A stretch of DNA of 64,000 bases, taken from Minutocellus sp. GHC0000111 (taxonomy: Eukaryota). Positions 7,092-51,087 of this stretch are shown here, in pieces. Under the pieces are notes generated by a model. It had not been told where the DNA came from and ran no database searches. It was given only the letters and a program-made list of their open reading frames with translations. The stretch spans positions 3,038,001-3,102,000 of the forward strand of contig OZ361260.1 in the NCBI GenBank assembly GCA_977018835.1, read 5' to 3'. The translations under genes were made by a program, and so were the position numbers. Positions within the stretch are counted from its first letter, which is position 1. Each line of letters starts with the position of its first letter.

Positions 7092-7118
7092 AGTAAAATG
7101 TAGGCCAACACGATCGTG

Positions 7119-10100
7119 CCTTTCGGTTTCAGAGGATTTGTAGAGGGTGTACCAATAACCCCTAAAAAAGGTCATTCTTGCACCCATTTCTCATTTCCCA
7201 CCAAGTGTTTTGTTAGTCGATGTTCTCTTCGGGAGGAACGCAAACACTCCTCAACTCGTGGACATCTACTGGACCTGCTCATTCAGCAGGTTGCCACCGA
7301 CCAGTAGTATCCACTGAATTCGCAGGTCCAGTAGATTCTGGCAGGAACACATGTGTATTTTTTGGTCCCCCGCACACACCCTCTCTCACCACCGCAACCC
7401 GCAAATTTTGTGACGATGACGACGACCAACCAGACCACGCCCAAAAAATACAAACGCAGCAGAACTTCGTTCTCAGGGAGCAAGAGAGGCAACACCATCA
7501 AGGCATCCAGGAAGGCGGCAAAGGCGGCAGCTGAGCCGAAAACACCATCGCCGAGCGCAAACACGTCGTCGAAGAAGCGGCCACGGTCAAATTCGCCCGC
7601 CAAACCGTCACCGTCGTCGGCGAAGAAGAGGACGGCCCCTCCTCCTATCCCCATGGCCTTTCTCCTTGCAGCAGATGTCATTCGAAGGGCTGGTAAGGAT
7701 CTGTGGTGGAGAGAGTAACCCCCGATTCCTGCGGCAAAGATGACATTTGTGTTGGTTCTTGGCAGAAATGGGAGGAAGACGTCCTCCCTGCTTTCATCGA
7801 GGCCGACTTGTTGCGTTCCAAGTCCGTCGGTGGAGGAAAGTATGAGCTACAGTACAACGAGGAAAAATGGAAGGACATGCAGCAACATCTCAAGGAGCAT
7901 TGTAGTTTGAAGTTGCACTTGTCGACACATCGGCCGAGAGGGAAGACAAGACGCAGGGCGCTTTTGTGTTTGTGCTCACAGGAGGACAACCACCCGAAAC
8001 TCTCTGGACCGGAGGGAAAGAAGGTGCACGAGAAAAGAAATCCCGATGAAGTTCTGTTCTCTGGGCGCTCGACTGTCTTAGCTACTAAGCTAGGTGAGAG
8101 GTTGTCAGCTCACAGAAAGGAGGCACAGTCAGCGCGTTGCGAAGCAAGAGCAAAATCACTAGTCGACGAGGCCAAGAAACTGGGTTGGATGCCAGCAAGT
8201 CTCCTCAGCATGCTGAAGGGAACTGGTGACACTTCCGCCACTGAAGCAGCTGCAGCCTCCCCCAATGATGAAGGTTTAGGAGGAGCCGACACTTCCGTTG
8301 TCTGTGCCACCTCCAGTGACATTGATGAACAGGTAAAGGTCGCTCTCGGCCTCGACTTTGTTGTTCGGATGGCCAACGATGACGTGCTCCGTCCTCCTCG
8401 TCCCAATGCAACCGTCACCGAACCAACACCAATCAGAAAAGAAAATCAGGCGAATGAAAGAATGCGGTTCAGCGCCGTGGCTCTCGCGGATTGGTGGGGA
8501 TGCGGCGACCCAACTCGCACGCATGAAGACCGGCAACAAATTGCAACTGCCGCGTGTCGGCAAGTTGCGTGCGATCACGGTTGTGCCAAGTCAACCGGTG
8601 GCTCTTAGCTTTACAAGTGGAGAGACCAGCTCTACAAAAGCCTTGCTGATGGCATCAGCAATCCCATCGGCAGAAAGGAGGTTCGTGGAAGGAAGGCACA
8701 CACGGACATGATCGAGGAGAAGGAGCCAGGATGTCTCCGCGAGCTGTGTCGGCATGCTGCTCGGATGAAGGGTGCGATGGCAACCTTTAAGGAGCTAGCT
8801 GACTGCATGAGCGCAAAATCAGCTACTCCAGATGAAGATAGGCTGACAATTAGTCTCCATCGTCTTCAGCTTTTTCGCTGGTGGAAAAAGCAAGGCGGTG
8901 AGGAGAAGTCGTCGATCGAGAAGCCGAGGCTCACCCCCGAATGTTGTAGGAAGCGACTTGATTGGATCGAAAAGTGGGAGGACATTACGACCGATCCCAA
9001 CATTCCTGTAGCGTGTCTTGATGAAAAGTGGTTTTACACTGCTACTCGGCGACGAAAGATCAAGATGTTGCCACTTTCTGACGAAGAACTAAGCAGTCCG
9101 AACCTCGCGTCTATCCATGCTTCCGAGGCAAGCCCGAAAATTCGATCCAGAAGACACCCTGTCAAAGTTATGTGTCTTGGAGTTGTTGGCCGACCAATGA
9201 AGGATGAAACCAAAGACGTTGATTTCAATGGGCGCATCATGATCAAGAGAGTCGCCAGGGAGCAGAAGGTGGAAAAGCTTGCGCGTAATCAGAATTTCTC
9301 TCCAGATGCTAAGGTCAACGATGCGCTAAAAAATGACAAAGATTGGCGCGACATTTACGACGAGAATGCTGACATGACCGCCGGCCATCTTTGCGACCAC
9401 ATTGCCGAAATCTACGGCCTTTCTGAGTTTGTTACAGAGCGATTGGAACTTCAATACGAGGACCACAAATCCGACGGTCAGGCAAAAAGTCGCAAGCATG
9501 CCGCTGTTGGCTACAATCAAAAGATCTCGAGTCTCAAGCGACGCACTCCTGACAGCAATGGAGAGAAGGTGAAGGTTGAGATCGACGACCTTGAGCTCGG
9601 GGTGCGGTATCAACGGGGCGATAAGGTTACCAAGGACTGTAGCTGCGACTCCAAATGGATGTTGGAGACTGTGAATGAGGTCGGGAAGGCGATTCGAGAC
9701 GCACATCATTGGGTGAAGTGGGATCCACAAAACATTCAGTCAGGAGTCTGATGTCATGCATCTTATGATGGACAATGCCGGCGGTCATGGGTCCAATGAA
9801 GCAGTTGAGAAGCACACCGAGGACCTCAAAAACAAATATAAGATTGAGATAATCCAGCAGGTTCCTCGGTCGCCCGAGACAAATGTTCTTGATCTCGGCA
9901 TCTGGATGTCTTTGCAGTCGGCCGTCGAAAAGGAGCATCGCGGTCAGAAGAATGATGCGAATGCTCTTGACAAGACTGTGATGAAAGTATGGGCCAATGT
10001 CGCATCAAAAGAGGCCTTTCTCAATGTATTTGGAAAACTTCCAGTGATATATAACAACATCAAGAGAAGTCGTGGCGGTAACAATCTTGTGGAGACCAGA

Positions 10101-10571
10101 CGGGGAAAGGCTGGTCTCGCATCAATTGCCGAGGAAGAAGCTGAAGAGGATGGTGAACCTCTCTGGCCAATTGATTTTCCCGGCGAAGATGATGACATTG
10201 AGGACGACATAGATGAAAATGATGAAGACGATGGAGTCATTGATTTGCTATAACTTATCATAGCATGTCCATTTCCATTCATTACATTTTGATTTGGTGC
10301 TTCCAAAAATGTATTTTTTCCCGGGGTGAGGAATGCAAATGTCGAAAAAAATCATCACATAATGTACATTTATTGGTTCTGGTGCACAATATCTCTCGAC
10401 TATATGTAGAAGTTGGTGACCATAACTTGGTTCTTGCCCCGACTTCCATCTTGGCCGTCATTTATTCCTCGGAGTTAGAAAAAGTGAGCTTGGATTTTTG
10501 GTCTGGTGTGGTCGTGTTTGTTTCTAATACGTCATCATCACGTCACTTTCAAATCCTCTGAACTCGAAAGG
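7119..10571 (+). mobile_element. Tc1/mariner-superfamily (DD39D-type) DNA transposon, copy A, degenerate
   Basis: 22-bp TIRs: 7119-7140 cctttcggtttcagaggatttg vs reverse complement of 10550-10571 cctttcgagttcagaggatttg (20/22); right end followed by TA; internal transposase. Confidence 0.93.
7416..10253 (+). pseudogene. DD39D transposase pseudogene (copy A)
   Basis: LDEKWF, KVMxLGVV, MDNAGGH-...-PRSPETNVLDLG with 39 residues between the 2nd and 3rd Asp; frameshifts at ~7710 and ~9745, TAG at 8606-8608. Confidence 0.9.
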
Positions 10572-10573
10572 TA

Positions 10574-11862
10574 CTCATTTCATCTCAATAGAAAGATGGT
10601 ATTTTCGAATCAGTCAGGAGATTACACAAGTAGATCATGATCTACCGATATGTTGAGCTGCGCTTCTTCTAGACTAGCTAGCCGAACTGACTGGCTGCTG
10701 CGCTGCTGCCACCGCCAAATTCCTGACTGACCTCCCCTCTCTTCAAGCAACGACATAAATAAATACCGGTAACAGCAATCTTGATGTAAATGCATGCCGG
10801 TGTTGGCATAAATTTGGTTCTGACATCAACCTTATGTTTACACTATCGACCAACTTAGGTACGGATCAGATCAAAACAAGAGATTGAATGAAAGGGGGGA
10901 TTGTGCATATTTTTCTTTTTCTTTCTCCGAGTAGCGACTTAGTTGTCACCACCGATGGCAACGAAACGCTTCTTGGCGGCCTGCTTGCGGCTGATGCGCT
11001 TTCCGGTGGCGCCCTCTCCTGCCTCGGTCTCCTCATCGGCCTTGTCAACTCCCTTCTTCTTCTCGCTGAGGATGAACTCAACGTGGGCGGGATGGCTGGC
11101 GTACTTGCCGATGCGGCCGTGGGCACGGCAGGTTCGCCTGCGGCCGGCGGGGGCCTTGTTGCACTGGGCATGGGAGACGTAGAGGGTGTCAACGTCGAGA
11201 CCCTTGGTCTCAGCGTTGGCGATGGCGTTGGTGAGCATGTCCTTGATGACGGCCGTGGCCTTGACGGGCCACCTACCCTTGGAGCCGGGGGTCTTGGACT
11301 GCTTGGCCTGGGCCTTGCGGCCGATGCCACCGGTGTGCTTGACGAAGGGGACGACGGCCTTGAAGGCGAGGACGTCCTCGAGGAACTTCATGGCCTTGTT
11401 GACAGGCATGCCGTTGATGTGGTGAGCGATCTCACGGCAGTGCTTGAAGTGCACACGGAGGTGGGATCCGCGGGTCTTGGAGTGGGCGACAGCGGCATCG
11501 GGCTCGACAGCGTAACGGGTCATGATGAAAAAGTTTTGATACAAAAATATACTAATACAGACTGTTGGGGTATTGGAAGAAAAGAATGGAAAGATGTTGG
11601 AAGTGAGAATAATGTGTTTTGGGCGGCAAATGTAGCCATTGTCGTGTATCACTGACATCTCTTTCGCAGCTCATAACCAAAGCACTGCCAGGATGAAGAT
11701 CGAGGTGTCGGTCCGATGGAAATGAAATGTGACGGATAGCCCAACCTTGAAGCCACCCAAATACACCAGTTCCTGTTGAAAATCCACCAGTATTAGCGCT
11801 GCCTGATTGCTTGACTGAGATCTGCCGCCCCACACTACGCGTTGTCTCACGGCTACACACGT
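10574..11862. repeat. Captured host segment, inverted duplicate of 45283-46571
   Basis: Near-identical reverse complement; homology stops sharply at 11862/45283 and is followed by TIR tip aactcgaaagg + TA (11863-11875). Confidence 0.93.
10939..11523 (-). CDS. RPL17: 60S ribosomal protein L17 (uL22), transposon-captured duplicate with Tyr->His and Tyr->Cys changes
   Basis: LRVHFKHCRE, GRWPVKA, RRTCRAHGRI (vs RRTYRAHGRI in the other copy); reading frame intact, intronless. Confidence 0.93.
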   Translation of the reverse strand: MTRYAVEPDAAVAHSKTRGSHLRVHFKHCREIAHHINGMPVNKAMKFLEDVLAFKAVVPFVKHTGGIGRKAQAKQSKTPGSKGRWPVKATAVIKDMLTNAIANAETKGLDVDTLYVSHAQCNKAPAGRRRTCRAHGRIGKYASHPAHVEFILSEKKKGVDKADEETEAGEGATGKRISRKQAAKKRFVAIGGDN

Positions 11863-12139
11863 AACTCGAAAGGTACCGCCGCTGTCCCGCGTCGCGCGTC
11901 GCCACCCATGACATTTTCCGCAAAGCCGAGGGACAAAACAAGGATATGTGCCGGACTGCCTCTTTCGCCTATTTCGCCGGATTTCGCGGCAATCGCAATC
12001 GCAATAACACTCGCCTCAGAAGTCGCCAATCCGTCACATTTATTGCATCCACTCAAAGCTCCAAACTACCTAGAGCTAGCTAGAGCTACGTAGTAGTACT
12101 AACCTGCTTTCCTTCCATTCATCCGTTCGTTGACTCCAC

Positions 12140-13150
12140 ATGTCACCCATCAAGTCCCTCTACCGCCGCGCCATCGATGACCAGGCTGTTGCCATGTGTG
12201 CTGCTGCTACGTATGCCCCCTCGCGAATGCAGCAGCCATCATCAATACTAGTAGTGACGCCCTTCCATCCCCTTCCATTCTCCTCCCTTGCGGCTCCAGC
12301 CACTTCTACCGGCCAATCGACCACAGGCGCGTCAACGTCTGCCCCCATCCCAACTCCAGTTGTCTCTCCGCCCACGACCACAGATGTTGACGTCTACGTG
12401 CTTGACTGCATTTCCAGTATCAGCAGCAATACTTCTGAAAGTGCGCCCAGCACTGGCGCTGATTCTTCCTCTACTGCTACGCCCCACATGACCAAGAAGG
12501 AACGGCGCCTCATCATGAATCGCAACTCTGCCCGCCTTCGTCGCAAGCGTCACGCCGAGAAGATGGACAAGATGCAAGGTACCGTCCGCGATCTGGAGAT
12601 CAGCAACAAGCGCATGCGCACCGAGAACGACGAGCTTCGCAAGGCCATCGCCGACCTCAAGGCGCTGGTGGAGGAAAGGAATCAAGCAATGCCTGCAAGC
12701 AGTGTCGCCACTATCGCTCCTGATGGTGCAGCTTCTCCCCAATCTGTTGCATCTGCTAAAGTGGACGCTACTACATACGAGTCATTGGCTGCCTCGGCAC
12801 TGGCCAAGTGCGCAAGAATCAGCGCCGCTCCAGAAAAGCAAGGGGAGGAAATCTCTCCGAAGACCACGCTTGTCAAGCCTACCATGCCACCCAAATACAT
12901 GACTGTAGATGCCAACAATACCCTCTTTCGCTCCTACCTTCTCTGCCGTGCTGCCTCCCTGCGTCTGTTCACGAGAAATTCCTCTGCTGAAGATAAAACG
13001 TCCTTCGATGTTTCTACCAATGTCCCTTCCAGCAGCATTCAGCCCAGTACTTCTAGATCTACTGGAGTTGACATGACCTCAACCACCGACGAGATTGAAG
13101 CCACAAAGCTTGCTGCTCAGCAGCTCACTGCTCTGGCCTTCATGGGATAA
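12140..13150 (+). CDS. bZIP transcription factor
   Basis: KKERRLIMNRNSARLRRKRH basic region followed by heptad zipper (MQGTVRDLEISNKRMRTENDELRKAIADLK). Confidence 0.9.
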   Translation: MSPIKSLYRRAIDDQAVAMCAAATYAPSRMQQPSSILVVTPFHPLPFSSLAAPATSTGQSTTGASTSAPIPTPVVSPPTTTDVDVYVLDCISSISSNTSESAPSTGADSSSTATPHMTKKERRLIMNRNSARLRRKRHAEKMDKMQGTVRDLEISNKRMRTENDELRKAIADLKALVEERNQAMPASSVATIAPDGAASPQSVASAKVDATTYESLAASALAKCARISAAPEKQGEEISPKTTLVKPTMPPKYMTVDANNTLFRSYLLCRAASLRLFTRNSSAEDKTSFDVSTNVPSSSIQPSTSRSTGVDMTSTTDEIEATKLAAQQLTALAFMG

Positions 13151-13274
13151 AAGTGTGTGTACTACAGTCAGATCGTATTTTTCTTCTTAGTAGGAGGCGA
13201 GGGTACGCATAAGATTGTGCAGTAATATGAACTTAATTAATAGGTAGCGACGCACTACTGCTAATGCTGACTAG

Positions 13275-14618
13275 CTAGCTTTTCTTAAACAAATTGTTGA
13301 GTTTGTTCAAATCGTCGGCGCTTGGAAGGCCATCTCCGGCCCCACCCATGCCGCCACCGTAATCATCGTCGTCGTCATCCCCAGGAGTGGGTCGAATTGG
13401 CTTCCTTGGTCGTCTTCTTGGCGGTTCTGGCTCATCATCATCGTCGTCTTCATCATCACCTTCATCGTCGTTGTTCCCAACATCGTCGTCTTCACCTTCG
13501 GATGCGTCGGTAATATAGCGCAATTCGTCGGCAATCTCCTCGTCCGTTGCCGTGGCGTTGGTTTCCAACTTGAGCCCCAGCTCCTTTGCCTGTTCCCCCA
13601 GAATTTCGATGCTGGTCTCAACCTTCTTCTGCTCTTTGTTCCACTGCCATCCTTCGTATCCAAAGCAAGACACTGCGCAGCCACCTCCGGCAATAAGAAT
13701 AACCTTCGCCTGGATGTTTGATTTAGCTTTGTCGCTCATACCGGTCGCGCCAGGAGGCCGGGTCATGTAGCCGCACTGGGACGCACCCGGAGCGCCCATG
13801 CCAGGTGCCGCCGCCGCAGCTGCAGCAGCAGCACCCCCGTCGGAAAGGAGATTGCCATCCCCAGAGGCAAAGTCCTCGTCGTCGTCTTCATCCTCGTCTC
13901 CATACTCCTCCCATTGCTTCTCCTTCTGACGCTGCTGCCTCCGAAGAGCCCGACGTTCCTTTCGACTTAGCTTCTTGGAGCTGGCGTTGGCATCGGTAAC
14001 ATCAGCAACAGCATCATCTGACTCACCGCCAAAATCATGCAGCAATGTTCCAGTTTCTCCCGTTTCCGGAGTAACGAACGTGCCGTCCTCCGCTTGAATC
14101 GCACCAGGCTTGATACTGCAGGGGACTACTCTTCGATCATCATCCAACATTCGAACAACTGACGCAGGACGCGCCCGAGGTGCCGGTGGAGCACTGGCAG
14201 TAACATCAGCCGCGACAGCCGATCCAGGTCGAAGGCGGAGGGCTGTAAAATGGAGAAGCGCCAGAGACGTAACCTTTGCGACCTTCCTCATCCTTTGACG
14301 AAATCTCAAACTGAGTCTCTTCTTGGATGGAGCTTCGATGCCATCGATTTCATCACGACCATCGTTACTGTCTCTCTCGGATGCCGAAAGTTTGCTCCCA
14401 AATTCAAGTGTGGGAGCTTTCACAATTGGGCTTGATGCGGTCTGCTGCCATCTTGATAGTGGTGGCATTTGACGACATCCGTTGGTTCGGAAGGCAATGC
14501 CAGCAGATGCAAAGCATGACGACCCATCATTAATGCCTGCCGCATTCGCGAGAACAGCCGGCGCAAGGAACAACAAAAGGGCCAGAGAAGGGGCAAATCT
14601 AGACGTGATTGCCACCAT
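13275..14618 (-). CDS. Hypothetical protein with signal peptide and acidic low-complexity regions
   Basis: 447-aa ORF, hydrophobic N-terminus, second hydrophobic segment near VILIAGGG. Confidence 0.7.
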   Translation of the reverse strand: MVAITSRFAPSLALLLFLAPAVLANAAGINDGSSCFASAGIAFRTNGCRQMPPLSRWQQTASSPIVKAPTLEFGSKLSASERDSNDGRDEIDGIEAPSKKRLSLRFRQRMRKVAKVTSLALLHFTALRLRPGSAVAADVTASAPPAPRARPASVVRMLDDDRRVVPCSIKPGAIQAEDGTFVTPETGETGTLLHDFGGESDDAVADVTDANASSKKLSRKERRALRRQQRQKEKQWEEYGDEDEDDDEDFASGDGNLLSDGGAAAAAAAAAPGMGAPGASQCGYMTRPPGATGMSDKAKSNIQAKVILIAGGGCAVSCFGYEGWQWNKEQKKVETSIEILGEQAKELGLKLETNATATDEEIADELRYITDASEGEDDDVGNNDDEGDDEDDDDDEPEPPRRRPRKPIRPTPGDDDDDDYGGGMGGAGDGLPSADDLNKLNNLFKKS

Positions 14619-28055: not shown

Positions 28056-28477
28056 TGGAGATATCACCTAATCCAATTGGTATGGGGTACTCGCGCCCAT
28101 CCGGCCTCCTGCAGTCCTGCAGCCATCCATTTTCCTGCCCAGCTACCGTGTCATTGGTACTTGTGCGTAACGATAACGCTCCACTCGCAAAACTGGCGTT
28201 TGGCGCACCCGCCACTGCCGAGATCATTCGTATCAAAAGAATGAGTCGGGGCTCGTCTGGTCTCCCTTTTAGCTTTCAGCTCGAGGCAAGAGTATCCCCT
28301 GTTGCGTTTTAACTTGCTTTGATTGGCGCACTGGATTGTCTCTTTTTGCGGACATATTCTTGTGCTGGATCCATAAGATTGTAGCACGGAACTTCGAACC
28401 GAAAGACATTAATATAGAAGACCTGCTCTTCTGTCCTCTCAACAGTCCCGCCGATCAACTCCAACAACGAATCAACA

Positions 28478-30893
28478 ATGCGACGCCCCAATAATACATC
28501 TACAGCGCTACTCCTGGCGCTTGCGTTGTCCCCCTCTTTATGCAACCTGGCATCGGCGCAGGCACAGCCCACCGGAGGAACTGATCTGGGTGGCGGCATC
28601 GTAACGCAGACGAACGTGGAGCACTTTGCCAAGATCTCGCTCGATGCCGAGGAGATGTTCACCCTCACCCAGTCCAATTCGTACAACGATGCATCCAACA
28701 TATACCTGGCCGGCAACAACTCCATCCAGTACGACCGGAATGGCAATGCTCTTCCCACCAAACGCAGCCTTTCGTCGCTGTCCACCGGCGCTTCCGACGG
28801 CAAGTTCGATGGGGAGGTCCCGTTTGTCTTTCAGATGTATGGGCTGGCGGGCGGTGCTGGCCACACATATGAGACCTATGAAAGCTTCGCTACGTATGCC
28901 GATGCTTTTGTCAACGATTCCCTCAAGGAACAGAAGGGTGCGCTGGGACCAGAAGCGGCGGTCGCACTCAACGTTTGGATGTATGCCGCTCACGTTCTCA
29001 CCATTGCCGTGGAAGATTGCGCATTGGAATCGTCCGGGGTCAATCTGGACATTATTGGGCGCGACGAAGCCCTCGGTGGCAGCGAGGATGCACTTGACAT
29101 TTTCATATCATTTTGGATTGGATACAACCAAGCTCCTGGAAGTGACGATGGAAGCTCTCCTTATGCCATGGCCGAGCGTGCCGCTACCCTCTTCGGCACT
29201 TCCGGTCCTAATGGCGAAGCCAAGGCCAATGTTGCAATCAAAGCACTCTTTAATGAAGCGCAGCAAATCCTGTCCTTCCCTAATGCCTGCCGTCCTGGAT
29301 CTGATACCGTTGGTCAGCTTTGGGGCATCCTCCATCGCACCGTCAGTCAGATGCAGGTCCCTCTTGTTCAGCAGCTGATTGATGCTCTGGTCCGCGAGGA
29401 CCAAGACCGCATCAGCCTGTATGCCAAGGCCGTCGTCCCACAAATGTCCAGTTGCGCTGCATCAACGTATCGTCGTCTGAAGGAGAACTTGCTAGATCGT
29501 ACCTATGATCCCACCAAGTTTGTAGATGTTCTTGGAGACTTACAATCAAGCTATGACTGCCTCGGCTTTAGTTGTGACGACATCGGCGCCTACAAGACGG
29601 ACCGAGTGGCGCAGTGTGCTGAGTTGCCAATCAATTTCCCTATGGCTGAATACAGTCCAACTAGTCATGTTCATTTGGTGAGTTGCTGAAGAATTCAAGA
29701 GCTTCATGAAATGTGTTGCTGTGCATTTTAGAATTTTATCAACAGATTTCTCACTTTTATTTCCACCACGACCTCTTCATGGTTTGTTTTGGCTTTGGCT
29801 TCAGCATTCAAAAATCGATCTGGATGTTAATGCAATCAAGGCTTTGTTGAGTTTCGACAGTGACGAATCCTGGGCCGCAGCGAAGGATATTTACATGTAT
29901 GGCAAAATTTCGGAAATCTACCGTAAATCTCCTGAAAGCGATCCGTACACGGTCCGTTCCCTGCAAAGTCTGGCAACGTCAGCTCTCCGAAAGAAATCCC
30001 CTTGGTACAAACTGTTTGAAGAATATCACCAAGATCCAAACTATGCTGATAAGATTATCATGGATGTCTTTGAGGGACGAGGGAAATGGGGCAATGCCGC
30101 CCGAGAACAGAGAGCAGAGATGCTAACAAAGACCATCCAATACCAGGTTCTTTACATGTACCTGCTCGCCGAGGCAGCTGATGCTGAAGCCGATTGCCGA
30201 TCCGGAGACAAGAATGATAATATCGGTGGAGCACATTCCTGGGACGAGGTCGCTGCTTTCTACATTGGCTCTCTTGAGGGCACTACTCGAGGCGGATCAA
30301 ATGACTTTTCCGATGGACAGCTTCAATGGAATCTCGCCAACAAGCGCTCGACTCAGTTCAACACCCAAGTTCCTGACGGATATGCGTTGGTCAATTCGGA
30401 GATTGAAGATGATCTCTATGCCGGTAAGGGCGAGTTGGATGCCTACGCCTGTGATAGCCTGTCCAAGACGATCAAACGTATTGAACGCAATTCGATCGTG
30501 CCCATGATTCAAAGCGTTATTCGATACGCCCTCAAGGTGGAGGATTTATCGTACAGCTCAAGCAGCAAGGATATTGCCGAGGCAGAAGCTTTTGCAATGG
30601 CAATACTGCCCATTGTAAAATCGGTGGATAAGCCCGGCGCAATAGTTTTGGAGAACAACATGATCATTCAGGAAGGAGTCCAACCAGTATCCGAAGGAGC
30701 GCAACGAGTTGCAGACGCCTTTTACAAGACCATGGTAGAATTTGAGCTGGAATGTGAACTTGTGGGCCAGGCCGATGGCGTAGGAGCCTGTGAAATGTTT
30801 AGAAAGATGTCCAGTCCGGCCAGCTCCATGTGGTCGTCAGCAGCACCCTTGCTTTCCATTATGCTTGCTGGAGCCCTATCTGCGCTGCTCTGA
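28478..30893 (+). CDS. FEA1/low-iron-inducible periplasmic (ISIP2/phytotransferrin-like) two-repeat surface protein
   Basis: Signal peptide; two repeats starting H[FS].KI.LD..A..IY..G; WDEVAAFYIGSLEG; C-terminal hydrophobic tail; intron 29678-29804. Confidence 0.75.
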
Positions 30894-34250: not shown

Positions 34251-36271
34251 CTATCGCTTGCATTCCGTACAGCAAGTGCACTCTAGTTGAGGATTTGGTC
34301 CACGGCAGTCAGAGATCAACGATCGGATGAAACCATCACCAATCGGAGGTACGCGATTATCGCATATTTGCTGTGGCATCGTGCCAGTGAGATCGGCGTA
34401 CTCGAAGCCACCAACAATGAGAAGATCAAGATTTCCAAGCTCGGTCGGAATAGTTCCCCGAAGGGGATTGCCTCCGACTTGTAAGAAGCGCAGTGTTGTC
34501 ATCTCGCCTAATCGTGGCGACAGGGTTCCAGTGAGGGTAATATTGTTGAGGTCAAATTGCAATAGCTCTCTCAAATCAAAGAAGGTGCTTGGGATGGTAC
34601 CAGAAATTTCGTTGAAATCGACATCAAAGACCAAAAGCCTCTCCATCTTTCCATACTCCTCAGGAATAGGACCCGACAGACGCCCTCTCTCCGTGTAAAA
34701 GAAGCGAAGATCCGATAGCTCACTCACTTCCACTGGCAACGCCCCAATGAGGTTATTGCTCTCAAATTCGATCCTATCCAAACACAAATCGTTAGCGTTG
34801 CACTCCAAACCTCCCCAGAAACACTCACTGACGGGCGTCAGCCAAGCATCGGTACCACTAATGCGAGGGAAAATGTCGGTGCCGAGAGGGGGCGGAGTAA
34901 GGCCCAAATTGCACGCATCATTGGCTTCTTGGATGCTCGCTGGGTCGGACAGATCATCAGGCGCAGAACACTGCACCCAATTGGGTCCATTGGTCGAGAA
35001 GTAGAACACAGCCGCGACATATCTCTGAAGAGACTTTGCATCCTGCGGGCAGACGTAGAGAGCATCTTCGTCAATGAGCCACTCGAGAGCATTGTATTGA
35101 GGAGTGCCCGGAGTGATTGGTGCCGTTGGTCCAGAAACACGAATTGCCTGGAGTGTGAGCTGTTCCCTTCGTTCCACAGGAGTCAAATTACATCGCAGTG
35201 TGGGGTTGAACGTAGGTGTAGCGGTAGGAGACGCCGTGGTTGGGACAGGGGTGGGCCCCGGCGTCGGAACGGGGGTCGGTGCTGGTGTGGGATTTGGCGT
35301 CGGTGGGGGCGTCGGTGGGACAGGGGTGGGCGGGACGGGCGTAGGCGGTGCCGCTGTGGGCGGAACTGGCGTCGGGGGCACTGCGAGAGGAGCAATGCCA
35401 AGAAGTGAAGAACAAGATACACGATGAGAAATGTGGCGAGAATAATGAAAAAAATAAACAAAAGATTTTCTGCTGTGATTATCGTTGACTTACCTGGCGT
35501 GGGAGGCACCGCCGTTGGAGGAACAGGAGTGGGTGGGACTGGAGTGGGTGCCTTTGTCGGGCTTGGTGTTGGGCCAGGAGTCGGTGCCTTGGTGGGTGCC
35601 TTCGTCGGTGCAGGCGTAGGAGGCTTTGTAGCGGAAGCTGTAATGGAAATGGTCACCACGGCACTGTCGGTAGCACCAGATGTGTCGGCAATAGTGTACG
35701 TGAAGGAATCCGTGGCAGTCTCGCCGTTTTGGAGGGAATCGTATTGACCATTGGGATCGTATGTGTAGTCTCCCTTGTTGTTGATGGTCAGGATCGCACC
35801 AGAACCGAGCGTCACGGTAGTCTCACGTCGTACAGGCTTTCCATCTACACGGAACACGGCGATGTCGTCTCCATCGGGATCGGAATCGTTGGCCAAGACA
35901 TTGCCACTGACGGTGGCATCGTCCCTGGTTGTAGCCGTGACGTCGTTGGCGACGGGGGGCTGATTGGGGATGGACCCACCAACCTGCTGCAGCATGCGTG
36001 CCCAGAATTCTTCATCGGCCTCATCAATCACATCGCTATCATTTTCGTACATCTGCTGGCCCATCAGCTTCATTGCCTTGGCTCCCAACCGCCGTCTCCT
36101 CCGGTCCGGGCCTTTGTTTTTGTTCCTTTTGCTATCTATCTTTGCTGTTGCTGCCTCCTCGGATGCCACTTGCTGTGTTGCGGCAGATACCGACGATATG
36201 CAACCACCGGACAGGGCCCAAAGCCCCAAAGACAAGGCAATCAATCGATGGTGTCGCTGTAATTGCATCAT
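34251..36271 (-). CDS. Secreted LRR protein with cadherin-like/bacterial Ig-like domain and Pro-rich linker
   Basis: Signal peptide; PPVANDV...GNVLANDSDPDGD...DSFTYTI; PTP repeats; PQ..AL.WL..ED..QRY cap; LRRs; DC..ECTCCTEC end; intron ~35383-35493. Confidence 0.88.
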
Positions 36272-36978
36272 TGCTGTACGATAATTTGATCGGCGGACGA
36301 AGCTATGCTGAACTGTCAATCACCTGTCAGATGTTGATTCCTACTTTTCGAAGCACGGCAACAAATAGACACACAATGCGTGTGATGTGCTTGTATGCTC
36401 TATTCGTCCAATTGCTGAAAGATCACCACAAAAGTCTCGCCGCAAAGGTCGAATCATACCGCACCGATGATTAAAGGAATTCCTCTCAGCTACGCAGCGA
36501 TCGACCGGTCTCTTGATGCGAGAAAGGCTTGAATCGAGGGACGTGTCAACACAAATACAACACAACAGACCAATCTTCCAATCCGTCTCGTTCTCTTGAA
36601 AATATCTTGGCGACTCTCACTCGGCCCCGTGACTTTGTTTGCCAGTCGTCGTCGTCGTCTCTCGCAAAAAAATTCGAACCTTGGCGATCGGTTCGGTACT
36701 TGCTGATTCTTGTAGCACAAGTGGACTTGTTCGACCGTATTCTCCATCGGCATTTGGTCACTCCCAAGCCTTCGACGCGCGAGCCTGCCGGCCAACGTTG
36801 CGCCAGACGACTGGCAGGCACGACGTCACCGGTTCCACCTTCACTTTTCTCGCTGTCATTGCCGACCGCCTCGATCCACGCCACGGCCGCATTATTATAG
36901 CATTGATACGCTTGCTTGGGAACTGAAAGCCAGTGTTGCGCATACATATCGCAACCGTTTCCACTTATATATAGAGTT

Positions 36979-39381: not shown

Positions 39382-41402
39382 TTAGAAGCACGACGAACAG
39401 CAGTCGCACTCAATTTTGGGATCATTTCCAGCACAATCCGCAGTTAGAATGTTAAGTAGCCCATTGGGAACACGATTATCGCAGACAGACTGTGGCATTG
39501 AACCGCTGAAATCATTGCCACGGAAGGTAGCAGTGCCTATTATAATAATGTTGCAGTGAACCATGAAATGAATGTGGACTTGGTGAGGATACGGTACTAG
39601 AATACCCCAGAGAGAAAACAATCGAGGACAGCAAAAAAAAAACTCCTGTGGTACTTACGCAATTTTGTGAGCCGGCTAAAAGTGTCTGGAATCTTTCCTT
39701 CGAACTTGTTATCTTCAAACTCAACAAAGACCAGGTCGGTAAGCCGCCCAACCCTGTCACTCAGAGTTCCCTCCAGGCGATTTTCGTCAATATCTAGTAC
39801 CTTGAGAGTGTCAAGGTTGAAAAGATTGTCACTGATTGGACCAGAAAGCCTATTCTGATCCAGATCCAAGACCTGAAGGCTCTCTCCATTCCAGACTCCT
39901 GAACCCCACTCCTCCGGGATGGTGCCAGAAGTTCGGCCGCCTTCCAGAGTGAGATTTCTGAGCTTATTGAGGGCCAAAATTTCGGCGGGGAAAGTACCTC
40001 CAAGATCGTTGCCCTCAAAGCCAATGACAGAAATATCATTTCCAGTACACTTGCTGCCAGCCCAGTCGCACTCAGAACTGGCCGAGAGGTAGGGCTTCTT
40101 GCCAGGAAAGCCACTGTTTGGAGCGCCACAAGGAACATTCTAAATGGGAAAGAAAGAGAATAACAAATATGATGGTCAGAGGCGTGTTCATTTTCTAACC
40201 AAGCAAATGAATGTGACAGAAAGGGATAATTTCGCGCCAATATAAAGTATATCTCACCTGCAGCCTTCTTCCCTTGCTCTTATCATCGCGGCCACCCTTC
40301 TTGCTATTCTTCTTCTTCCTCTTGTCATTCTTGTTCTTGTTGTTCCGATCGCGGCTGTCGGAATTATTATCCCTCTTCCTCCGCCCCTTTTCAAGCTCCT
40401 TCTTGGCCTCCTCCCAGTCGCACTTTGTCTCAACGAAACAGTCAGCACGGCACTCAAGTTCTTTGGGCTCGTTACAGAGACGGTCTCCACCATTGTCCTT
40501 GCAGCACTTGTCACGGCAGTACTTGAGACAATTAGTCTCGCCTTCTTTGTCCTTGTTTCCGCCGCCGCCTGTGCGGGCGAGTTGTTCGTCGTTATCGTCA
40601 TCATCATCGCCCCGGGCGGAATTGTCTTCAAGGACGACAATAGCTGGCTCCTTCTCTTTGATAGCCACCTTGTCATTGTCATCCTCGGCCCTTACAGAAG
40701 CCGATCCGGCCGAGCATTCAGCCCATCGATCGCCATCGGTGGAGTAGTAGAACACGGCCATAATGTATCTTTGGATGAGATTGTCATCGTCGGGACAGAG
40801 CTGGGCCTCATCCTCGTTTGTGATCCAGTTCAACGCCCTACCCTGCGGGCTGCGATCGTCGGCGATATTCTGGCGAGAGGAGACTCCTGATGCGGTGATC
40901 TCGTCGAGGATGCGACGCTGCCTCTGTCGTTCCGTAAGTCCATTGCAGACTGGGGATTGGGGAAAGTTTTACAACATGGCAAGGAAAATCAGAGAAGAAC
41001 AAAGTCAGCGATACGAGTGTGACATAAGAAAAAAAATGGCAATGCAATCCAGCCTCAAAAACACCAAAGAGGGGGAAATCAGCGATGCTACTCACCAGTA
41101 GGCCCGGGTGATGGGGCAGGTCCAGGTCCAGGAGAAGGTGGAAGACTACCACCCTTCTTTTCCTTGAGGTATCGGTCCCAGTAGGCCAGATCTTCCAGGG
41201 CGAGCACGTCCTCATCCGTTGCGGCCTGTTTGTCACCCCAAATCGAGAAACGATTCTTCCCACGGAGCTGACGAGCACCAGTCGTTGAGGTTTTGCCATC
41301 GTCATGATGAAAGGCGGCATCGACGGTAGCAGGGACGAGGATGACCATCGCCGCTGCCACGACAAGGGCCAAAGCAGTGCCGTGTTGTCTCATGATTTTC
41401 AT
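39382..41402 (-). CDS. Secreted LRR protein with Cys-rich/charged insertion
   Basis: Signal peptide, [18 protein letters not shown] cap, LRRs, [13 protein letters not shown]; three GT-AG introns (~40952-41096, ~40141-40257, ~39538-39658). Confidence 0.85.
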
Positions 41403-43473: not shown

Positions 43474-44040
43474 CGAATGAAGAGAACTCGCATATATACT
43501 AGTGAAGTAATAATTTCAATTGAATCCTTGAGTTTCATATTAAAAACCGATTTGCATACGTCGTGCAATGCCACGTTTCTAGATCGAAATGAGGGTGCAC
43601 TGATACGATGTTCCAAAAAAAGTAGAGCGATGTCCAGCAAACTGATCCAAATTGTTGAGACGAAATTCGCGCTCTTTGGCGGCCTCATCCTTTTCCTAGC
43701 AAATGGTGGTGGATATCTGGAAAGAATCTCTCCAGAAGCAACTACTTGTACTAGTACTTTTCGAGGAATCTAATGCAGCACTTGCCTTATACACACAGAC
43801 TAAACCTACCTACAACGAATTCATCAAAAATTACGATAAATTCATCAGACACACATGTCACGTATACTAAATTGAAATCAACTTTGAGATACGAAATTGA
43901 TAAATCATAAATGTATTATTCGGCTTTATCTTCTATAATCTACCAGTAGGAATTCCTACTTGCTGTAAACACTGTCCGGTCGTACGGACTATCAGCCAGT
44001 GCGCCAGTAGATCTACTCGCTCATATATATTATGAGCAAT

Positions 44041-44715
44041 TTAGTTCTTATTCCTCACCACGGCCGGGACAGGGATCATCTCCATTTTGGCCTGGGGCTC
44101 AAAGATACCCTTGCCAGACGAGCAGCACATCTTCTTGAAGCCCAGATCGCAGCACACCTGAGGCCGGGCGCAGTCGTAGTTGGACTCGCAGGTCGACTCG
44201 CCAAGCAACGACTTGGCCATGGTGGCGAAGATATTGTCCTGCTGTTGCTGCTGTCTTCCAGCGCCTGGCGATAATCGGTTCTGCTCAGAGGCGGCGGAGG
44301 CAGCCCGCGATTGGCGCATTTCCTCGGCCTTGAGGGCCTGCTCTCCCTCCATGGCTCGTACTTGGATTTGCAGGTCCACAAATTCTTGTTCCGTCATGGG
44401 CTTGAGACCGAATTTCTTCCTGCTCATATTTTTCAGCTCAAAGGCCCTCTGGTCGAAGGTTTGGCCATCGTTGTCGTGGGTGGCATGAAGGGCGGTCAGT
44501 GCCGGCGTTGATCCTCCCGCCGACGACGAGGTGGTTACAGTTGGATGGTGGCGGTGGTGGTCATGGGGGACATTTATGGCCGAATTCCGATTGTGATGAG
44601 AACCTGCTGCTCCACCACCAGTCGAGAATGCCGACGAAGGGGAGGAAACGACGGCCACAGCCGCTGCGGCGACAAACAGAGAGCGCTTTCTCATGGTAGT
44701 CCTGTTGGATGTCAT
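44041..44715 (-). CDS. Hypothetical, probably plastid-targeted protein with C-terminal Cys cluster
   Basis: Signal peptide ending SSAF; CESNYDC.RPQVCCDLGFKKMCC. Confidence 0.7.
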   Translation of the reverse strand: MTSNRTTMRKRSLFVAAAAVAVVSSPSSAFSTGGGAAGSHHNRNSAINVPHDHHRHHPTVTTSSSAGGSTPALTALHATHDNDGQTFDQRAFELKNMSRKKFGLKPMTEQEFVDLQIQVRAMEGEQALKAEEMRQSRAASAASEQNRLSPGAGRQQQQQDNIFATMAKSLLGESTCESNYDCARPQVCCDLGFKKMCCSSGKGIFEPQAKMEMIPVPAVVRNKN

Positions 44716-45621
44716 GGTTAGGTTTTGGTTTGCGGTTGCTTTGAACGGTTGGATCAAGTGAATTGTGATGGAATGATACGATACGTGCCAATGCCGCGGA
44801 AGTTTGACGCAGAACAAAACAACGCAGAGTTCTGCAGAACTCCTGCGTCAACCCAACACATCACGAGATCACGAGTAGATGAGTCATTCGATTGAGTCAG
44901 TGAGATTGAAAAGTTTCAGGTGATTCCTCAAAATTTCGCAACTTACTTCGATTTCCCCCCAAAACCAAATTCTACCTGCTTACTAAGAAACACGCTTTCC
45001 GGGTTATGCACATACTAGTAGCTCATAACCTGTTTCCCGCTCTTTTTCGTTTTTCATACGAAAACGAGATGTGAGTGGAACGATGGCCGAGTTGCCGGCT
45101 AGTGGAGGTAGATTTTATCGACCGACCATGTCAGTGAACGCTGGGGGACCTTTCCGTTGGTGCATGCGAGCGTTGAAGTGCTGCAGGAGTTGTAGCAGAT
45201 GGAGAGAAAACGCAGCACATCCTCGGCTGGTGATCTGCCTCTCGGGACCTCACCTCCGATTGGAAACACCGGCGGAGCAGACACGTGTGTAGCCGTGAGA
45301 CAACGCGTAGTGTGGGGCGGCAGATCTCAGTCAAGCAATCAGGCAGCGCTAATACTGGTGGATTTTCAACAGGAACTGGTGTATTTGGGTGGCTTCAAGG
45401 TTGGGCTATCCGTCACATTTCATTTCCATCGGACCGACACCTCGATCTTCATCCTGGCAGTGCTTTGGTTATGAGCTGCGAAAGAGATGTCAGTGATACA
45501 CGACAATGGCTACATTTGCCGCCCAAAACACATTATTCTCACTTCCAACATCTTTCCATTCTTTTCTTCCAATACCCCAACAGTCTGTATTAGTATATTT
45601 TCGTATCAAAACTTTTTCATC

Positions 45622-46206
45622 ATGACCCGTTACGCTGTCGAGCCCGATGCCGCTGTCGCCCACTCCAAGACCCGCGGATCCCACCTCCGTGTGCACTTCA
45701 AGCACTGCCGTGAGATCGCTCACCACATCAACGGCATGCCCGTCAACAAGGCCATGAAGTTCCTCGAGGACGTCCTCGCCTTCAAGGCCGTCGTCCCCTT
45801 CGTCAAGTACACCGGTGGCATCGGCCGCAAGGCCCAGGCCAAGCAGTCCAAGACCCCCGGCTCCAAGGGTAGGTGGCCCGTCAAGGCCACGGCCGTCATC
45901 AAGGACATGCTCACCAACGCCATCGCCAACGCTGAGACCAAGGGTCTCGACGTTGACACCCTCTACGTCTCCCATGCCCAGTGCAACAAGGCCCCCGCCG
46001 GCCGCAGGCGAACCTACCGTGCCCACGGCCGCATCGGCAAGTACGCCAGCCATCCCGCCCACGTTGAGTTCATCCTCAGCGAGAAGAAGAAGGGAGTTGA
46101 CAAGGCCGATGAGGAGACCGAGGCAGGAGAGGGCGCCACCGGAAAGCGCATCAGCCGCAAGCAGGCCGCCAAGAAGCGTTTCGTTGCCATCGGTGGTGAG
46201 AACTAA
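45622..46206 (+). CDS. RPL17: 60S ribosomal protein L17 (uL22), native copy
   Basis: RGSHLRVHFK, GRWPVK, RRTYRAHGRI intact; strong codon bias. Confidence 0.97.
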   Translation: MTRYAVEPDAAVAHSKTRGSHLRVHFKHCREIAHHINGMPVNKAMKFLEDVLAFKAVVPFVKYTGGIGRKAQAKQSKTPGSKGRWPVKATAVIKDMLTNAIANAETKGLDVDTLYVSHAQCNKAPAGRRRTYRAHGRIGKYASHPAHVEFILSEKKKGVDKADEETEAGEGATGKRISRKQAAKKRFVAIGGEN

Positions 46207-46573
46207 GTCGCTACTCGGAGAAAGAAAAAGAAAAATATGCACAATCCCCCCTTTCATTCAATCTCTTGTTTTGATCTGATCCGTACCTAAGTTGGTCGAT
46301 AGTGTAAACATAAGGTTGATGTCAGAACCAAATTTATGCCAATACCGGTATGCATTTACATCAAGATTACTGTTACCGGTATTTATTTAAATCGTTGCTT
46401 GAAGAGAGGGGAGGTCAGTCAGGAATTCGGCGGTGGCAGCAGCGCAGCAGCCAGTCAGTTCGGCTAGCTAGTCTAGAAGAAGCGCAGCTCAACATATCGG
46501 TAGATCATGATCTACTTGTGTAATCTCCTGACTGATTCGAAAATACCATCTTTCTATTGAGATGAAATGAGTA

Positions 46574-49500
46574 CCTTTCGAGTTCAGAGGATTTGAAAGT
46601 GACGTGATGATGACGTATTAGAAACACGACCACACCAGACCAAAAATCCAAGCTCACTTTTTCTAACTCCGAGGAATAAATGACGGCCAAGATGGAAGTC
46701 GGGGCAAGAGCCAAGTTATGGTCACCAACTTCTACATATAGTCGAGAGATATTGTGCACCAGAACCAATAAATGTACATTATGTGATGATTTTTTTCGAC
46801 ATTTGCATTCATTCCTCACCCCGGGAAAAAACACATGTTTTTGGAAGCACCAAATCAAAATGTAATGAATAGAAATGGACATGCTATGATAAGTTATAGC
46901 AAATCAATGACTCCATCGTCTTCATCATTTTCATCTATGTCGTCCTCAATGTCATCATCTTCGCCGGGAGCATCAATTGGCCAGAGTGGTTCACCATCCT
47001 CTTCAGCTTCTTCCTCGGCAATTTTTGCGAGAGACTAGCCTTTCCCCGTCTGGTCTCCACAAGATTGTTACCGCCACGACTTCTCTTGATGTTGTTATAT
47101 ATCACTGGAAGTTTTCCAAATTCATTGAGAAAGGCCTCTTTTGATGCGACATTGGCCCATACTTTCATCACAGTCTTGTCAAGAGCATTCGCATCATTCT
47201 TCTGACCGCGATGCTCCTCCTTTTCGACGGCCGACTGCAAAGACATCCAGATGCCGAGATCAAGAACATTTGTTTCGGGCGACCGAGGAACCTGCTGGAT
47301 TATCTCAATCTTATATTTGTTTTTGAGGTCCTCGGTGTACTTCTCAACTGCTTCATTGGACCCATGACCGCCGGCATTGTCCATCATAAGATACATGACA
47401 TCATCAGACTCCTGAATATTTTGTGGATCCCACTTCACCCAATGATGTGCGTCTCGAATCGCCTTCCCGACCTCATTCATAGTCTCCAACATCCATTTGG
47501 AGTCGCAGCTACAGTCCTTGGTAACCTTATCGCCCCGTTGATACCGCACCCCGAGCTCAAGGTCGTCGATCTCAACCTTCACCTTCTCTCCATCATTGCC
47601 ATCCATCAGGAGTGTGTCGCTTGAGACTCGAGATCTTTTGATTGTAGCCAACAGCGGCATGCTTGCGACTTTTTGCCTGACCGTCGGATTTATAGTCCTC
47701 GTATTGAAGTTCCAATTGCTCTGTAACAAACTCAGAAAGGCCGTAGATTTCGGCAATGTGGTCGCAAAGATGGCCGGCGGTCATGTCAGCACTCTCTCGT
47801 CGTAAATGTCGCGCCAATCTTTGTCATTTTTTAGCGCATCGTTGACCTTAGCATCTGGAGAGAAATTCTGATTACGCGTAAGCTTTTCCACCTTCTGCTC
47901 CCTGGCGACTCTCTTGATCATGATGCGCCCATTGAAATCAACGTCTTTGGTTTCATCCTTCATTGGTCGGCCAACAACTCCAAGACACATGACTTTGACA
48001 GGGTGTCTTCTGGATCGAATTTTCGGGCTTGCCTCGGAAGCATGGATAGACGCGAGGTTCGGACTGCTTAGTTCTTCGTCAGAAAGTGGCAACATCTTGA
48101 TCTTTCGTCGCCGAGTAGCAGTGTAAAACCACTTTTCATCAAGATGCGCTACAGGAATGTTGGGATCGGTCGTAATGTCCTCCCACTTTTCGATCCAATC
48201 AAGTCGCTTCCCACAACATTCGGGGGTGAGCCTCGGCTTCTCGATCGACGACTTCTCCTCACCGCCTTGCTTTTTCCACCAGCGAAAAAGCTGAAGACGA
48301 TGGAGACTAATTGTCAGCCTATCTTCATCTGGAGTAGCTGATTTTCCGCTCATGCAGTCAGCTAGCTCCTTAAAGGTTGCCATCGCACCCTTCATCCGAG
48401 CAGCACACCGACGACACAGCTCGCGGAGACATCCTGGCTCCTTCTCCTCGATCATGTCCGTGCATGCCTTCCTTCCACGAACCTCCTTTCTGCCGATGGG
48501 ATTGCTGACGCCATCAGCAAGGCTTTTGTAGAGCTGGTCTCTCCACTTGTAAAGCTGAGAACCACCGGTTGACTTGGCATGGCCGTGATCGTGCGCAACT
48601 TGCCGACACGCGGCAGTTGCAATTTGTTGCCGGTCTTCATGCGTGCGAGTTGGGTCGCCGCATCCCCACCAATCCGCGAGAGCCACGGCGTTGAGCCGCA
48701 TTCTTTCATTCGCCTGCTTTTCTTTTCTGATTGGTGTTGGTTCGGTGACGGTTGCATTGGGACGAGGAGGACGGAGCATGTCATCGTTGGCCATCCGAAC
48801 AACAAAGTCGAGGCCGAGAGCGACCTTTGCCTGTTCATCAATGTCACTGGAGGTGGCACAGACAACGGAAGTGTCGGCTCCTCCTAAACCTTCATCATTT
48901 GGGGAGGCTGCAGCTGCTTCAGTGGCGGAAGCATCACCAGTTCCCTTCAGCATGCTGAGGAGACTTGCTGGCATCCAACCCAGTTTCTTGGCCTCGTCGA
49001 CTAGTGATTTTGCTCTTGCTTCGCAACGCGCTGACTGTGCCTCCTTTCTGTGAGCTGACAACCTCTCACCTAGCTTAGTAGCTAAGACAGTCGAGCGCCC
49101 AGAGAACAGAACTTCATCGGGATTTCTTTTCTCGTGCACCTTCTGTCCCTCCGGTCCAGAGAATTTCGGGTGGTTGTCCTCCTTCTTTTTGCGCGCAACC
49201 TGTGAGCACAAACACAAAGCGCCCTGCGTCTTGTCTTCCCTCTCGGCCGACACGTCGATCGACAAGTGCAACTTCAAACTACACAATGCTCCTTGAGAGA
49301 TGTTGCTGCACATCCTTCCATTTTTCCTCGTTGTGCTGTAGCTCATTGTTTCCTCCACCGACGGACTTGGAACGCAACAAGTCGGCCTCGATGAAAGCAG
49401 CAGGGAGGACGTCTTCCCATCATTTCTGCCTGCCGAGAACCAACACAAATGTCATCTTTGCCGCAGGAATCGGGGGTTGCTCTCTCCACCACAGATCCTT

Positions 49501-50080
49501 ACCAGCCCTTCGAATGACATCTGCTGCAAGGAGAAAGGCCATGGGGATGGGAGGAGGAGGGGCCGTCCTCTTCTTCGCCGACGACGGTGACGGTTTGGCG
49601 GGCGAATTTGACCGTGGCCGCTTCTTCGACGTGTTTGCGCTCGGCGATGGTGTGTTTTCGGCTCAGCTGCCGCCTTTGCCGCCTTCCTGGATGCCTTGAT
49701 GGTGTTGCCTCTCTTGCTCCCTGAGAACGAAGTTCTGCTGCGTTTGCATTTTTTGGGCGTGGTCTGGTTGGTGGTCGTCGTCATCGTCACAAAATTTGCG
49801 GGTTGCGGTGAGGGTGTGCGGGGGACCAAAAAACACACATGTGTTCCTGCCAGAATCTACTGGACCTGCGAATTCAGTGGACACTGCTGGTCGTCGGTGG
49901 CAACCTACTGAATGAGCAGGTCCAGCAGACATCCACGAGTTGAGGAGTGTTTGCGTTCCTCCCGAAGAGAGCATCGACTAACAACAAAACACGTTGTGGG
50001 AAATGAGAAATGGGTGCAAGAATGACCTTTTTTAGGGGTTATTGGCACACCCTCTCTACAAATCCTCTGAAACCGAAAGG
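46574..50080 (-). mobile_element. DD39D mariner-type transposon, copy B, degenerate
   Basis: TIRs at 46574-46595 and 50059-50080; TA at 46572-46573; inverted homolog of 7119-10571. Confidence 0.93.
46894..49784 (-). pseudogene. DD39D transposase pseudogene (copy B)
   Basis: ORF fragments 49452-49838, 47781-49448, 47593-47817 and 46935-47756 carry DEKWF, MDNAGGH and NVLDLG; many small indels. Confidence 0.9.
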
Positions 50081-51087
50081 TGACGACTCAAGGGGCGCAA
50101 GGGGCCGCCGTTTTTTCACCTCTGTCTCTGTTGCTCTCTCTCTCTCATCTCCTTATTGAAGGATTGGTTTCGGAATGATGTAATAATGATGCCACATCGA
50201 AAGAATTGCTCTTGAGTTTGAATTTGCGAGTTTCTGGACACACATGTTCTTACATGCGAGAATGGGGCGAGCACGGGTGGAAAAGAGATGTATCACGTAG
50301 GTCTGCTAAGAGGTCCTAAAGCTAAGCTAGATAGACATAGCTAGTAGAGGTTAATAGGACCTACGTAGATGAAAAATGGGCCATCGGAGATGTCGTTGGC
50401 CCATGGATCAACGGTCAGGATAGGGCACTGAGTCAGTGGTCTGATCACCGTACGTACCGTACGTATGTATACGTACGTACGTATCCCACGGTGTCAACAG
50501 ATCGCATCGGCATGCATCCAGGCTCACAGAGTTGCAAAGAAGGTAATCGTTGCAAAAGGCAACAATGATTTTCTTGGAAACGGTGAAGGCATTCATGTTG
50601 GGGTGCGAAAGGATTTCAGGCCGACTGAAAATGAATGGCATGGTTCGGATAGATGGGAAAATTGTCGCTCCTCCCCCCCCCCTCCTCCTGCTGCTGCTGC
50701 TGCTGACATCCAACCATGGATAATTAGTCCTGCGGTGCTTTTAAGTTATGTTATGTTTAAAATAATACTAGATAATTTAGATTCGAGCTATATTTGTGCT
50801 ACTACACACACATGCCGTACATGCATGTGTAGTGCTCTCTTGTCAGTTTTGATGGTTCCGGCTTTGCATGCATGTGTCCGTGTCCGGGTTGCGGGCCCAA
50901 AAATCGACATTTTTTGGTCCCGGCCCTGCGCTCGATTTCTCGCGAAACGGACTTCGTATTCGCCTTGCCTCGTGACTTTTGCAATGCCAGAGTCAAAAGA
51001 CTGGTAAGAGGTGAAGGATCGTCTCATCCGCTCCAGATCGGCCCGGGCTCATTACAATTCCAATTTAAGAGCACAGATTATAATAGA

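Follow-up and report, generated by a model that had tools for sequence, protein, structure and literature searches.

TpA to TpG/CpA hypermutation of a DD39D transposon family and its captured host DNA in the diatom Minutocellus

Background

In a 64,000-nucleotide stretch of DNA from the diatom Minutocellus sp. GHC0000111 (contig OZ361260.1, positions 3,038,001 to 3,102,000; hereafter the window), two broken copies of a DD39D Tc1/mariner-like transposon, copies A and B, have lost TpA dinucleotides by conversion to TpG or CpA. The change runs from TA to TG/CA and within the window is confined to the element and to a passenger segment of host DNA, containing the gene RPL17 (uL22), that copy A carries. 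Comparison across the transposon family indicates a preference for a pyrimidine 3' of the adenine read as edited and a choice of strand made independently from site to site. The first-pass annotation of the window had termed this "reverse RIP" (repeat-induced point mutation) and knew of no described mechanism; a matching signature, together with a proposal of adenine deamination, is in fact given in a preprint on Bigelowiella natans (Mettrop et al., 10.64898/2026.01.13.699255), and the process is neither undescribed nor RIP. New here are the preference for TAY (Y, pyrimidine; R, purine), its action on both strands independently per site, and its roughly 70-fold excess over CpG decay. Relative to the earlier report, the host group, the transposon target, the context fingerprint and an internal control are new.

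Results and discussion

Copies A and B differ mainly at TpA

The sole long repeat in the window pairs 7119-11862 with 50080-45283 at 96% identity (Table 1). Its unit consists of a 3.5 kb element with 22-bp imperfect terminal inverted repeats (TIRs) plus 1291 bp of host DNA with RPL17, which copy A carries internally and which, next to copy B, includes the native gene. The extents first assigned to the copies were correct for the element bodies, but the duplication reaches 11862/45283, and copy A ends in an 11-bp TIR fragment followed by TA.

Copy A (7119-10571, + strand) was aligned with copy B (46574-50080, - strand) over 3435 columns, 84 of which differ, in 61 groups. Thirty groups are of TpA type (23 TA vs TG/CA and 7 TG vs CA), as the first pass had estimated by eye; at the 23 sites A was changed at 10 and B at 13; each copy was altered separately. 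The other groups comprise 4 CA/CG differences, 9 other single transitions, 9 transversions and 9 multi-base differences. All example sites quoted earlier were found (8570, 8582, 8699, 8753, 9014, 9759 and 9813), as was a lone CA to TA change at 8606. The two copies have 65 TAs in common. Among bases in TA sites 43/196 differ, vs 20/1552 showing transitions in other A/T columns, which bears out the supposed excess (17-fold, somewhat inflated because the TA class was taken from either copy; Fisher p=3e-28). The observed/expected ratio of TA is 0.39 and 0.36 in the copies and 0.60-0.65 in the rest of the window, whereas CG is not depleted (0.90 in the copies, 0.91-0.95 elsewhere).

The longest stretches of the window with no RTAY are 47701-50290 and 7852-9454, and both involve the copies. 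Copy B has no RTAY over 2181 bp (47900-50080) vs 9.8 per kb at 46574-47899, and copy A has 3.0 per kb at 7119-9100 vs 8.2 per kb at 9101-10571; elsewhere in the window the density is 11.7 per kb. The third longest such stretch, 863 bp (5679-6542), lies left of copy A, in coding-like DNA of low complexity, and may reflect composition only.

A sister relationship of A and B was considered and is unsupported: they agree at 33/49 polymorphic columns, where 28.2 are expected, and agreement as good is found in 14% of 305 family pairs. A single rare non-TpA allele common to both points to kinship.

Direction of change

A protein search yielded a family set of 82 proteins at ~90% identity or more, plus intact relatives, one of which (P0102, 88% identical) served as outgroup; at the protein level only non-synonymous changes are visible. 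Of 797 family columns 50 are polymorphic, and almost all of these show exchanges that TA to TG/CA yields. In 28 columns with a Tyr in P0102, the family residues are Y in 279 cases, H in 252, C in 209 and others in 26. Since an ancestral CG would yield Arg, which occurs once, and the outgroups have Tyr, CG was not the ancestral state; nor did CA or TG emerge as ancestral. These comparisons support the view that conserved tyrosines of the transposase have been destroyed by TA to TG/CA changes.

The direction advanced in the first pass is upheld by two further lines of evidence. In sequencing run X2, a contig of the empty site (one contig, depth 140) runs from 46573 straight into the far flank through a single TA, and copy B's second target duplication, now TG, was therefore TA. 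The left duplication of copy A, also TG, probably derives from TA as well, judging from the family's TA target. In the captured host segment all 5 TA differences are altered on A's side, and run X5 matches copy B's state at these sites. They include RPL17 Y132, which is Tyr in 120/120 homologues; of the two RPL17 tyrosines changed, Y132 is therefore the sound anchor, while Y63 (Tyr in 75/120, His in 7) is weaker.

Sequence context and strand choice

Events were read on the strand whose A becomes G, and 81/89 candidate sites were kept, the 8 others being dropped because P0102 disagreed. Edit rates in the family proteins were 515/1427 at RTAY, 147/766 at YTAY, 74/638 at RTAR and 2/361 at YTAR, giving the order RTAY > YTAY >> TAR. 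TAY was edited in 30% of cases (662/2193) vs 8% for TAR (per-site test p=6e-11); one RTAR site, at a rate of 0.95, is probably a false call. The main signal does not depend on an ApT step, as GTAC (60/155) and CTAC (73/323) are edited alongside GTAT (166/421) and CTAT (15/69). The background, measured in 622 codons without TA sites, was 29/15425 for A>G and 18/4175 for CpG decay, so that TAY editing exceeds the former ~160-fold and the latter ~70-fold. Among the rare A>G changes outside TpA, too, sites followed by a pyrimidine are hit more often (24/6507 vs 5/8918, p=1e-5), as would be expected of a loosely specific enzyme.

Among copies with at least 8 Tyr sites, 51/52 carry both Cys and His, at loads from 0.15 to 0.90, in accordance with the earlier suggestion that tyrosines were converted independently in each copy. 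Across 55 pairs of sites there is no correlation in whether Cys or His arose (mean r 0.009), and this holds within 60 nt too. Changes that fall on both strands, without correlation and at graded loads, point to independent edits of each copy after insertion, and the uncorrelated strand choice argues against a single processive sweep or an RNA intermediate. RNA editing followed by reverse transcription was ruled out, both strands being altered within single DNA-transposon copies.

Among sequence clusters, that of P0102 has 3/8 variable columns of the Y/C/H type, and the other 10 clusters have 0-2. Scans for DNA of the element found one locus in Joint Genome Institute (JGI) metagenomes, and none in viral contigs or prokaryote genomes. 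A 73% relative covering only the last 141 bp of the gene (L001) shows no TA loss.

Read evidence

Two studies supplied runs X6 and X10, whose records give the platform as Illumina. The TpA at 47394-47395 is CA in X6 and TG in X10, and TA, TG and CA are all present in X2 and X5; where only copy B changed, all four runs have TA at most of the sites listed. Recurrence of derived alleles in Illumina libraries of two studies indicates that the substitutions are real in the family. Base-calling or assembly errors caused by modified bases, or CpG decay mistaken for loss of TA, which the first pass had named as a danger, are thus largely refuted for the substitutions and scarcely credible as an overall explanation. 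Such an explanation would draw on three facts: reads of the runs examined show neither the alleles private to A or to B nor the segment that A captured, and speak neither for nor against A's own alleles and junctions; most family proteins come from megabase contigs; and the small duplications described next were not seen in an Illumina-labelled run. Against it, besides the Illumina alleles, the JGI protein P0075 carries the Cys/His pattern, the outgroups have Tyr rather than Arg, and CG is undepleted.

Microduplications

Of the 34 gap runs in the A/B alignment, 19 are exact tandem duplications, 18 of them of 2-4 nt (14 in B, 5 in A), and none was seen in the shared flank. In-frame insertions in the family proteins number 38, most of them repeats of a residue, vs 4 deletions. 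The 12 insertions listed for B are missing from all four runs, except for one that is missing from three, and none was seen as an insertion in an Illumina-labelled run. The first-pass annotation makes no mention of these duplications. Coupling to the edits was tested and rejected: of 21 insertions in B, 3 have an edit of B no more than 10 nt away, against an expectation of 2.3 (p=0.40), and no other pairing is significant (best p=0.09). The microduplications are therefore kept apart from the edits, as a provisional feature.

A captured segment and its native template

The 1291-bp host segment provides a built-in control that separates targeting by locus from pairing of repeats. The captured copy lost 5/49 TAs and the native locus 0/49 (p=0.06), in line with the earlier view that only the transposon and the DNA it carries are altered; 3/5 of the edited sites are non-coding. 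The contrast would fit targeting by locus and is suggestive only. An X5 contig over 45000-46598 differs from the window at 2 letters, neither of them within the 49 TAs, and X5 cover is flat, which suggests that copy A's passenger is absent from X5. Copy A likely captured the segment through template-switch gap repair. Capture of a whole RPL17 gene in the manner of Pack-type elements by a Tc1/mariner-like element, closed by the 11-bp TIR fragment (10572-11875), is an observation in its own right; the captured copy also shows two CpG to CpA changes.

The RIP of ascomycete fungi, which requires RID/DNMT4 and a premeiotic stage, makes C:G to T:A changes, mostly at CpA, in both partners of a duplication and in strand-coordinated tracts. 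The likeness lies in dinucleotide-specific transitions that affect both strands and disable repeats. In the diatom element, however, direction and base are opposite (TA to CA/TG, with a single CA to TA between A and B), strand choice is independent and the native partner appears to be spared (0/49 vs 5/49, p=0.06), so that "reverse RIP" overstates the likeness. A true reverse RIP, in which homologous pairing of repeats triggers mutation in both partners, could call upon the fact that every sampled copy of a high-copy family is affected and on the kinship of diatom DNMT4 enzymes to RID described in PMC9998398. With all 49 TAs of the native half retained, a chemistry other than C to T, and a main target in B. 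natans that is single-copy (10.64898/2026.01.13.699255), we regard it as very improbable.

Possible mechanisms

We consider it somewhat probable, reasoning from sequence comparison, that host DNA adenine deamination aimed by locus at inserted elements accounts for these data. A host enzyme would deaminate adenine in the DNA of silenced inserted elements and of whatever they carry, converting A to inosine, and replication would then fix G, turning TpA into TpG or CpA on both strands. Such edits would accumulate as separate events after insertion, with targeting that may follow the locus, through chromatin or an RNA guide, rather than the pairing of copies, and the process could act as a defence and, as the first pass proposed, might erase TA insertion sites. 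A spectrum so narrowly A>G, in which the preference for flanking bases is graded, is compatible with an enzyme that acts on the base. A 'YAC' context preference of TadA/ABE editors was not borne out in the papers searched, one of which notes no obvious ABE context preference in rice, and it carries no weight in this argument. A more extended proposal, which we offer tentatively, is that diatoms may possess a natural genomic adenine editor that prefers RTAY, is aimed by locus, works site by site on both strands until tyrosines are lost, and has an origin shared with Bigelowiella across the stramenopiles, alveolates and Rhizaria (SAR), together with a second activity that adds the 2-4 nt duplications.

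Several points weigh against locus-aimed adenine deamination. An A to G change at TAY and a T to C change at RTA on the opposite strand look identical in sequence. The native/captured contrast has p=0.06, and selection at the native locus acts on 2/5 of the edited sites. No deaminase family was found among the scanned open reading frames (ORFs) of the window (31 and 20), to which that search was limited. The element's 5' 2 kb loses RTAY more strongly, for which deamination offers no explanation, and the microduplications are likewise left unexplained. It is possible that few assemblies of a single species supplied all 82 proteins, and sampling by long ORFs favours less damaged copies. Finally, clusters of more distant relatives are mostly without the pattern (e.g. 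2/50 and 0/43 Y/C/H columns); being short-contig assemblies, they are a weak test of spread to other lineages.

The ambiguity of strand leaves a minor but real chance that the base attacked is thymine: in silenced elements, the T of RpTpA would be modified (e.g. oxidised so as to pair with G) and fixed as C. Modified thymines do occur on transposons or repeats of dinoflagellates and kinetoplastids. The literature covered reports no such base for diatoms, and the B. natans authors favour adenine deamination, with an ADAT2 candidate (10.64898/2026.01.13.699255). An error-prone polymerase that fills repair patches in methylated elements, producing A to G at TA as well as slippage duplications, is rather unlikely. 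Polymerases of the pol eta type have a WA motif; such an enzyme would cover both the substitutions and the 38-to-4 excess of insertions, and AAT is the top non-TpA context of A>G (8/992). Yet the rate at AAY is ~0.2-0.8%, far from the 30% of TAY; A seldom undergoes transversion (14/28122), adjacent edits lack strand coordination, and the duplications do not cluster near the edits. Slightly less likely again is the decay or deamination to hypoxanthine of N6-methyladenine (6mA) on element DNA, by analogy with the decay of 5-methylcytosine (5mC) at CpG. ApT is the usual 6mA context of unicellular eukaryotes, and 19/24 background non-TpA events at VAY (V, not T) are at ApT; the GTAC and CTAC rates nevertheless rule out ApT 6mA as the main target, and a TpA-specific methylase would be required.

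Relation to known systems

The B. natans preprint (10.64898/2026.01.13.699255) describes de novo TpA to TpG/CpA hypermutation, checked by Sanger sequencing, in integrated DNA of nucleocytoplasmic large DNA viruses and virophages in a single-copy region, at a de novo rate raised ~1000-fold and in some lines only, and its authors propose an ADAT2-like enzyme. Both systems show A:T to G:C changes at TpA, on both strands and, as far as the diatom window shows, only in foreign or mobile DNA, and in both the enzyme is a proposal; the similar yields of His and Cys in our family, reflecting CpA and TpG products, are as in hypermutation of the B. natans type. The TpA-depleted coding sequences of B. natans are enriched for DDE and reverse-transcriptase domains. 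In the diatom, what is hit is instead a DNA transposon present in many copies, along with its target duplications and a host gene that it captured; de novo measurement belongs to B. natans, the diatom signature being known from comparison of sequences. The preprint's main text contains no mention of diatoms, of a 3'-pyrimidine/5'-purine preference or of 2-4 nt duplications, although its Table S2 may bear on flanking context. Our literature search, outside which most subscription papers fell, found no diatom report of TpA hypermutation.

Diatom transposons are methylated by DNMT5, with 5mC decay at CpG (PMC9998398). That decay is likewise focused on transposons, and a weak form of it is visible in the family; it is, however, ~70-fold weaker than the TAY signal and opposite in direction, and it has left CG undepleted.

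If deamination is confirmed, the range of a mutational defence described in one preprint for one rhizarian alga would widen to include diatoms and DNA transposons. Candidate enzymes could be tested directly against the TAY fingerprint, and base-editing research would take an interest in a natural adenine deaminase that acts on double-stranded DNA. The process would also skew the dating of transposons and conceal diatom transposases from domain searches.

Identity of the transposon family

Intact relatives are transposases of 850-960 aa, in which 39 residues separate the second Asp from the third in 5/7 cases examined and 38 do so in one, the seventh having no match to the motif. The only Pfam match was DDE_3, for one relative (E=0.094), and a PDB search with P0102 gave a best E=0.38. 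As described in PMC7325037, DD39D elements are known from plants and few oomycetes, diatoms not being among the hosts given there. The diatom element shares features of PlantMar elements, namely the DD39D spacing, short (22-bp) TIRs, a 3.5 kb length and a TA target, seen here at the empty site; the likeness is one of features, and the transposase is longer in the diatom element (PMC7325037). Intact DD39D/DD38D transposases of 750-970 aa without Pfam matches (P0102-P0121) occur in many marine assemblies.

The family is high-copy: summed X5 contig depth is ~15000 on the element vs 12 on the flank, a ratio that should not be read as copy number. The runs differ as to insertion B, which is polymorphic: X5 has its junction and X2 the empty site (one contig each).

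Other features of the window

Table 1. Coordinates of the two transposon copies and associated features in the window
Feature	Position	Strand	Remarks
Copy A, DD39D Tc1/mariner-like element body	7119..10571	+	TIRs 7119-7140 and 10550-10571 (22-bp, imperfect)
Copy A broken transposase	~7416-10253	+	Start inferred; stop 8606-8608; frameshifts
Copy A left target-site duplication	7117..7118	+	TG; partner 11874-11875 is TA
Captured host segment inside copy A, 1291 bp	10572..11862	+	5/49 TAs now TG/CA
RPL17 (uL22) passenger copy	10939..11523	-	Carries Y63H and Y132C
Copy A true right end	11863..11875	+	Final 11 bp of right TIR, then TA
Native host segment adjoining copy B	45283..46573	+	Likely template of captured segment; 49/49 TAs kept
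Copy B TA target duplication, end of native host segment	46572-46573	+	
Native RPL17 gene	45622..46206	+	Tyr63 and Tyr132 intact
Copy B element body with TIRs, broken transposase	46574..50080	-	No RTAY in 47900-50080
Copy B second target-site duplication	50081..50082	+	TG today; empty-site contig reads single TA
Tandem duplications of 2-4 nt, both copies	7141-10515 and 46627-50057		

The native RPL17 is 96% identical to a cluster containing Arcocellulus, Extubocellulus and Minutocellus entries, as suits a probable host in the diatom family Cymatosiraceae, and the labels of runs containing this DNA include sponge or marine metagenomes and coded organisms. RNA-labelled runs show even cover over intergenic DNA and are thus evidence of presence, not of transcription. 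About 25 bp left of copy A, two TTAGGG units face inverted CCCTAA in a short hairpin (7060-7092). Dispersed genes with leucine-rich repeats (LRRs) and 12-nt Pro/Thr-rich repeats lie at 34251-36319, 39597-40968, 54604-57947 and 61226-62737; they are mutually 70-78% identical, and these host paralogues are too divergent for use as a comparison of TA loss. An adjacent pair of ORFs at 28418-30893 has Fea1-like matches (E=0.0056 and 9.5e-10) and possibly represents iron-uptake (ISIP2a-like) genes.

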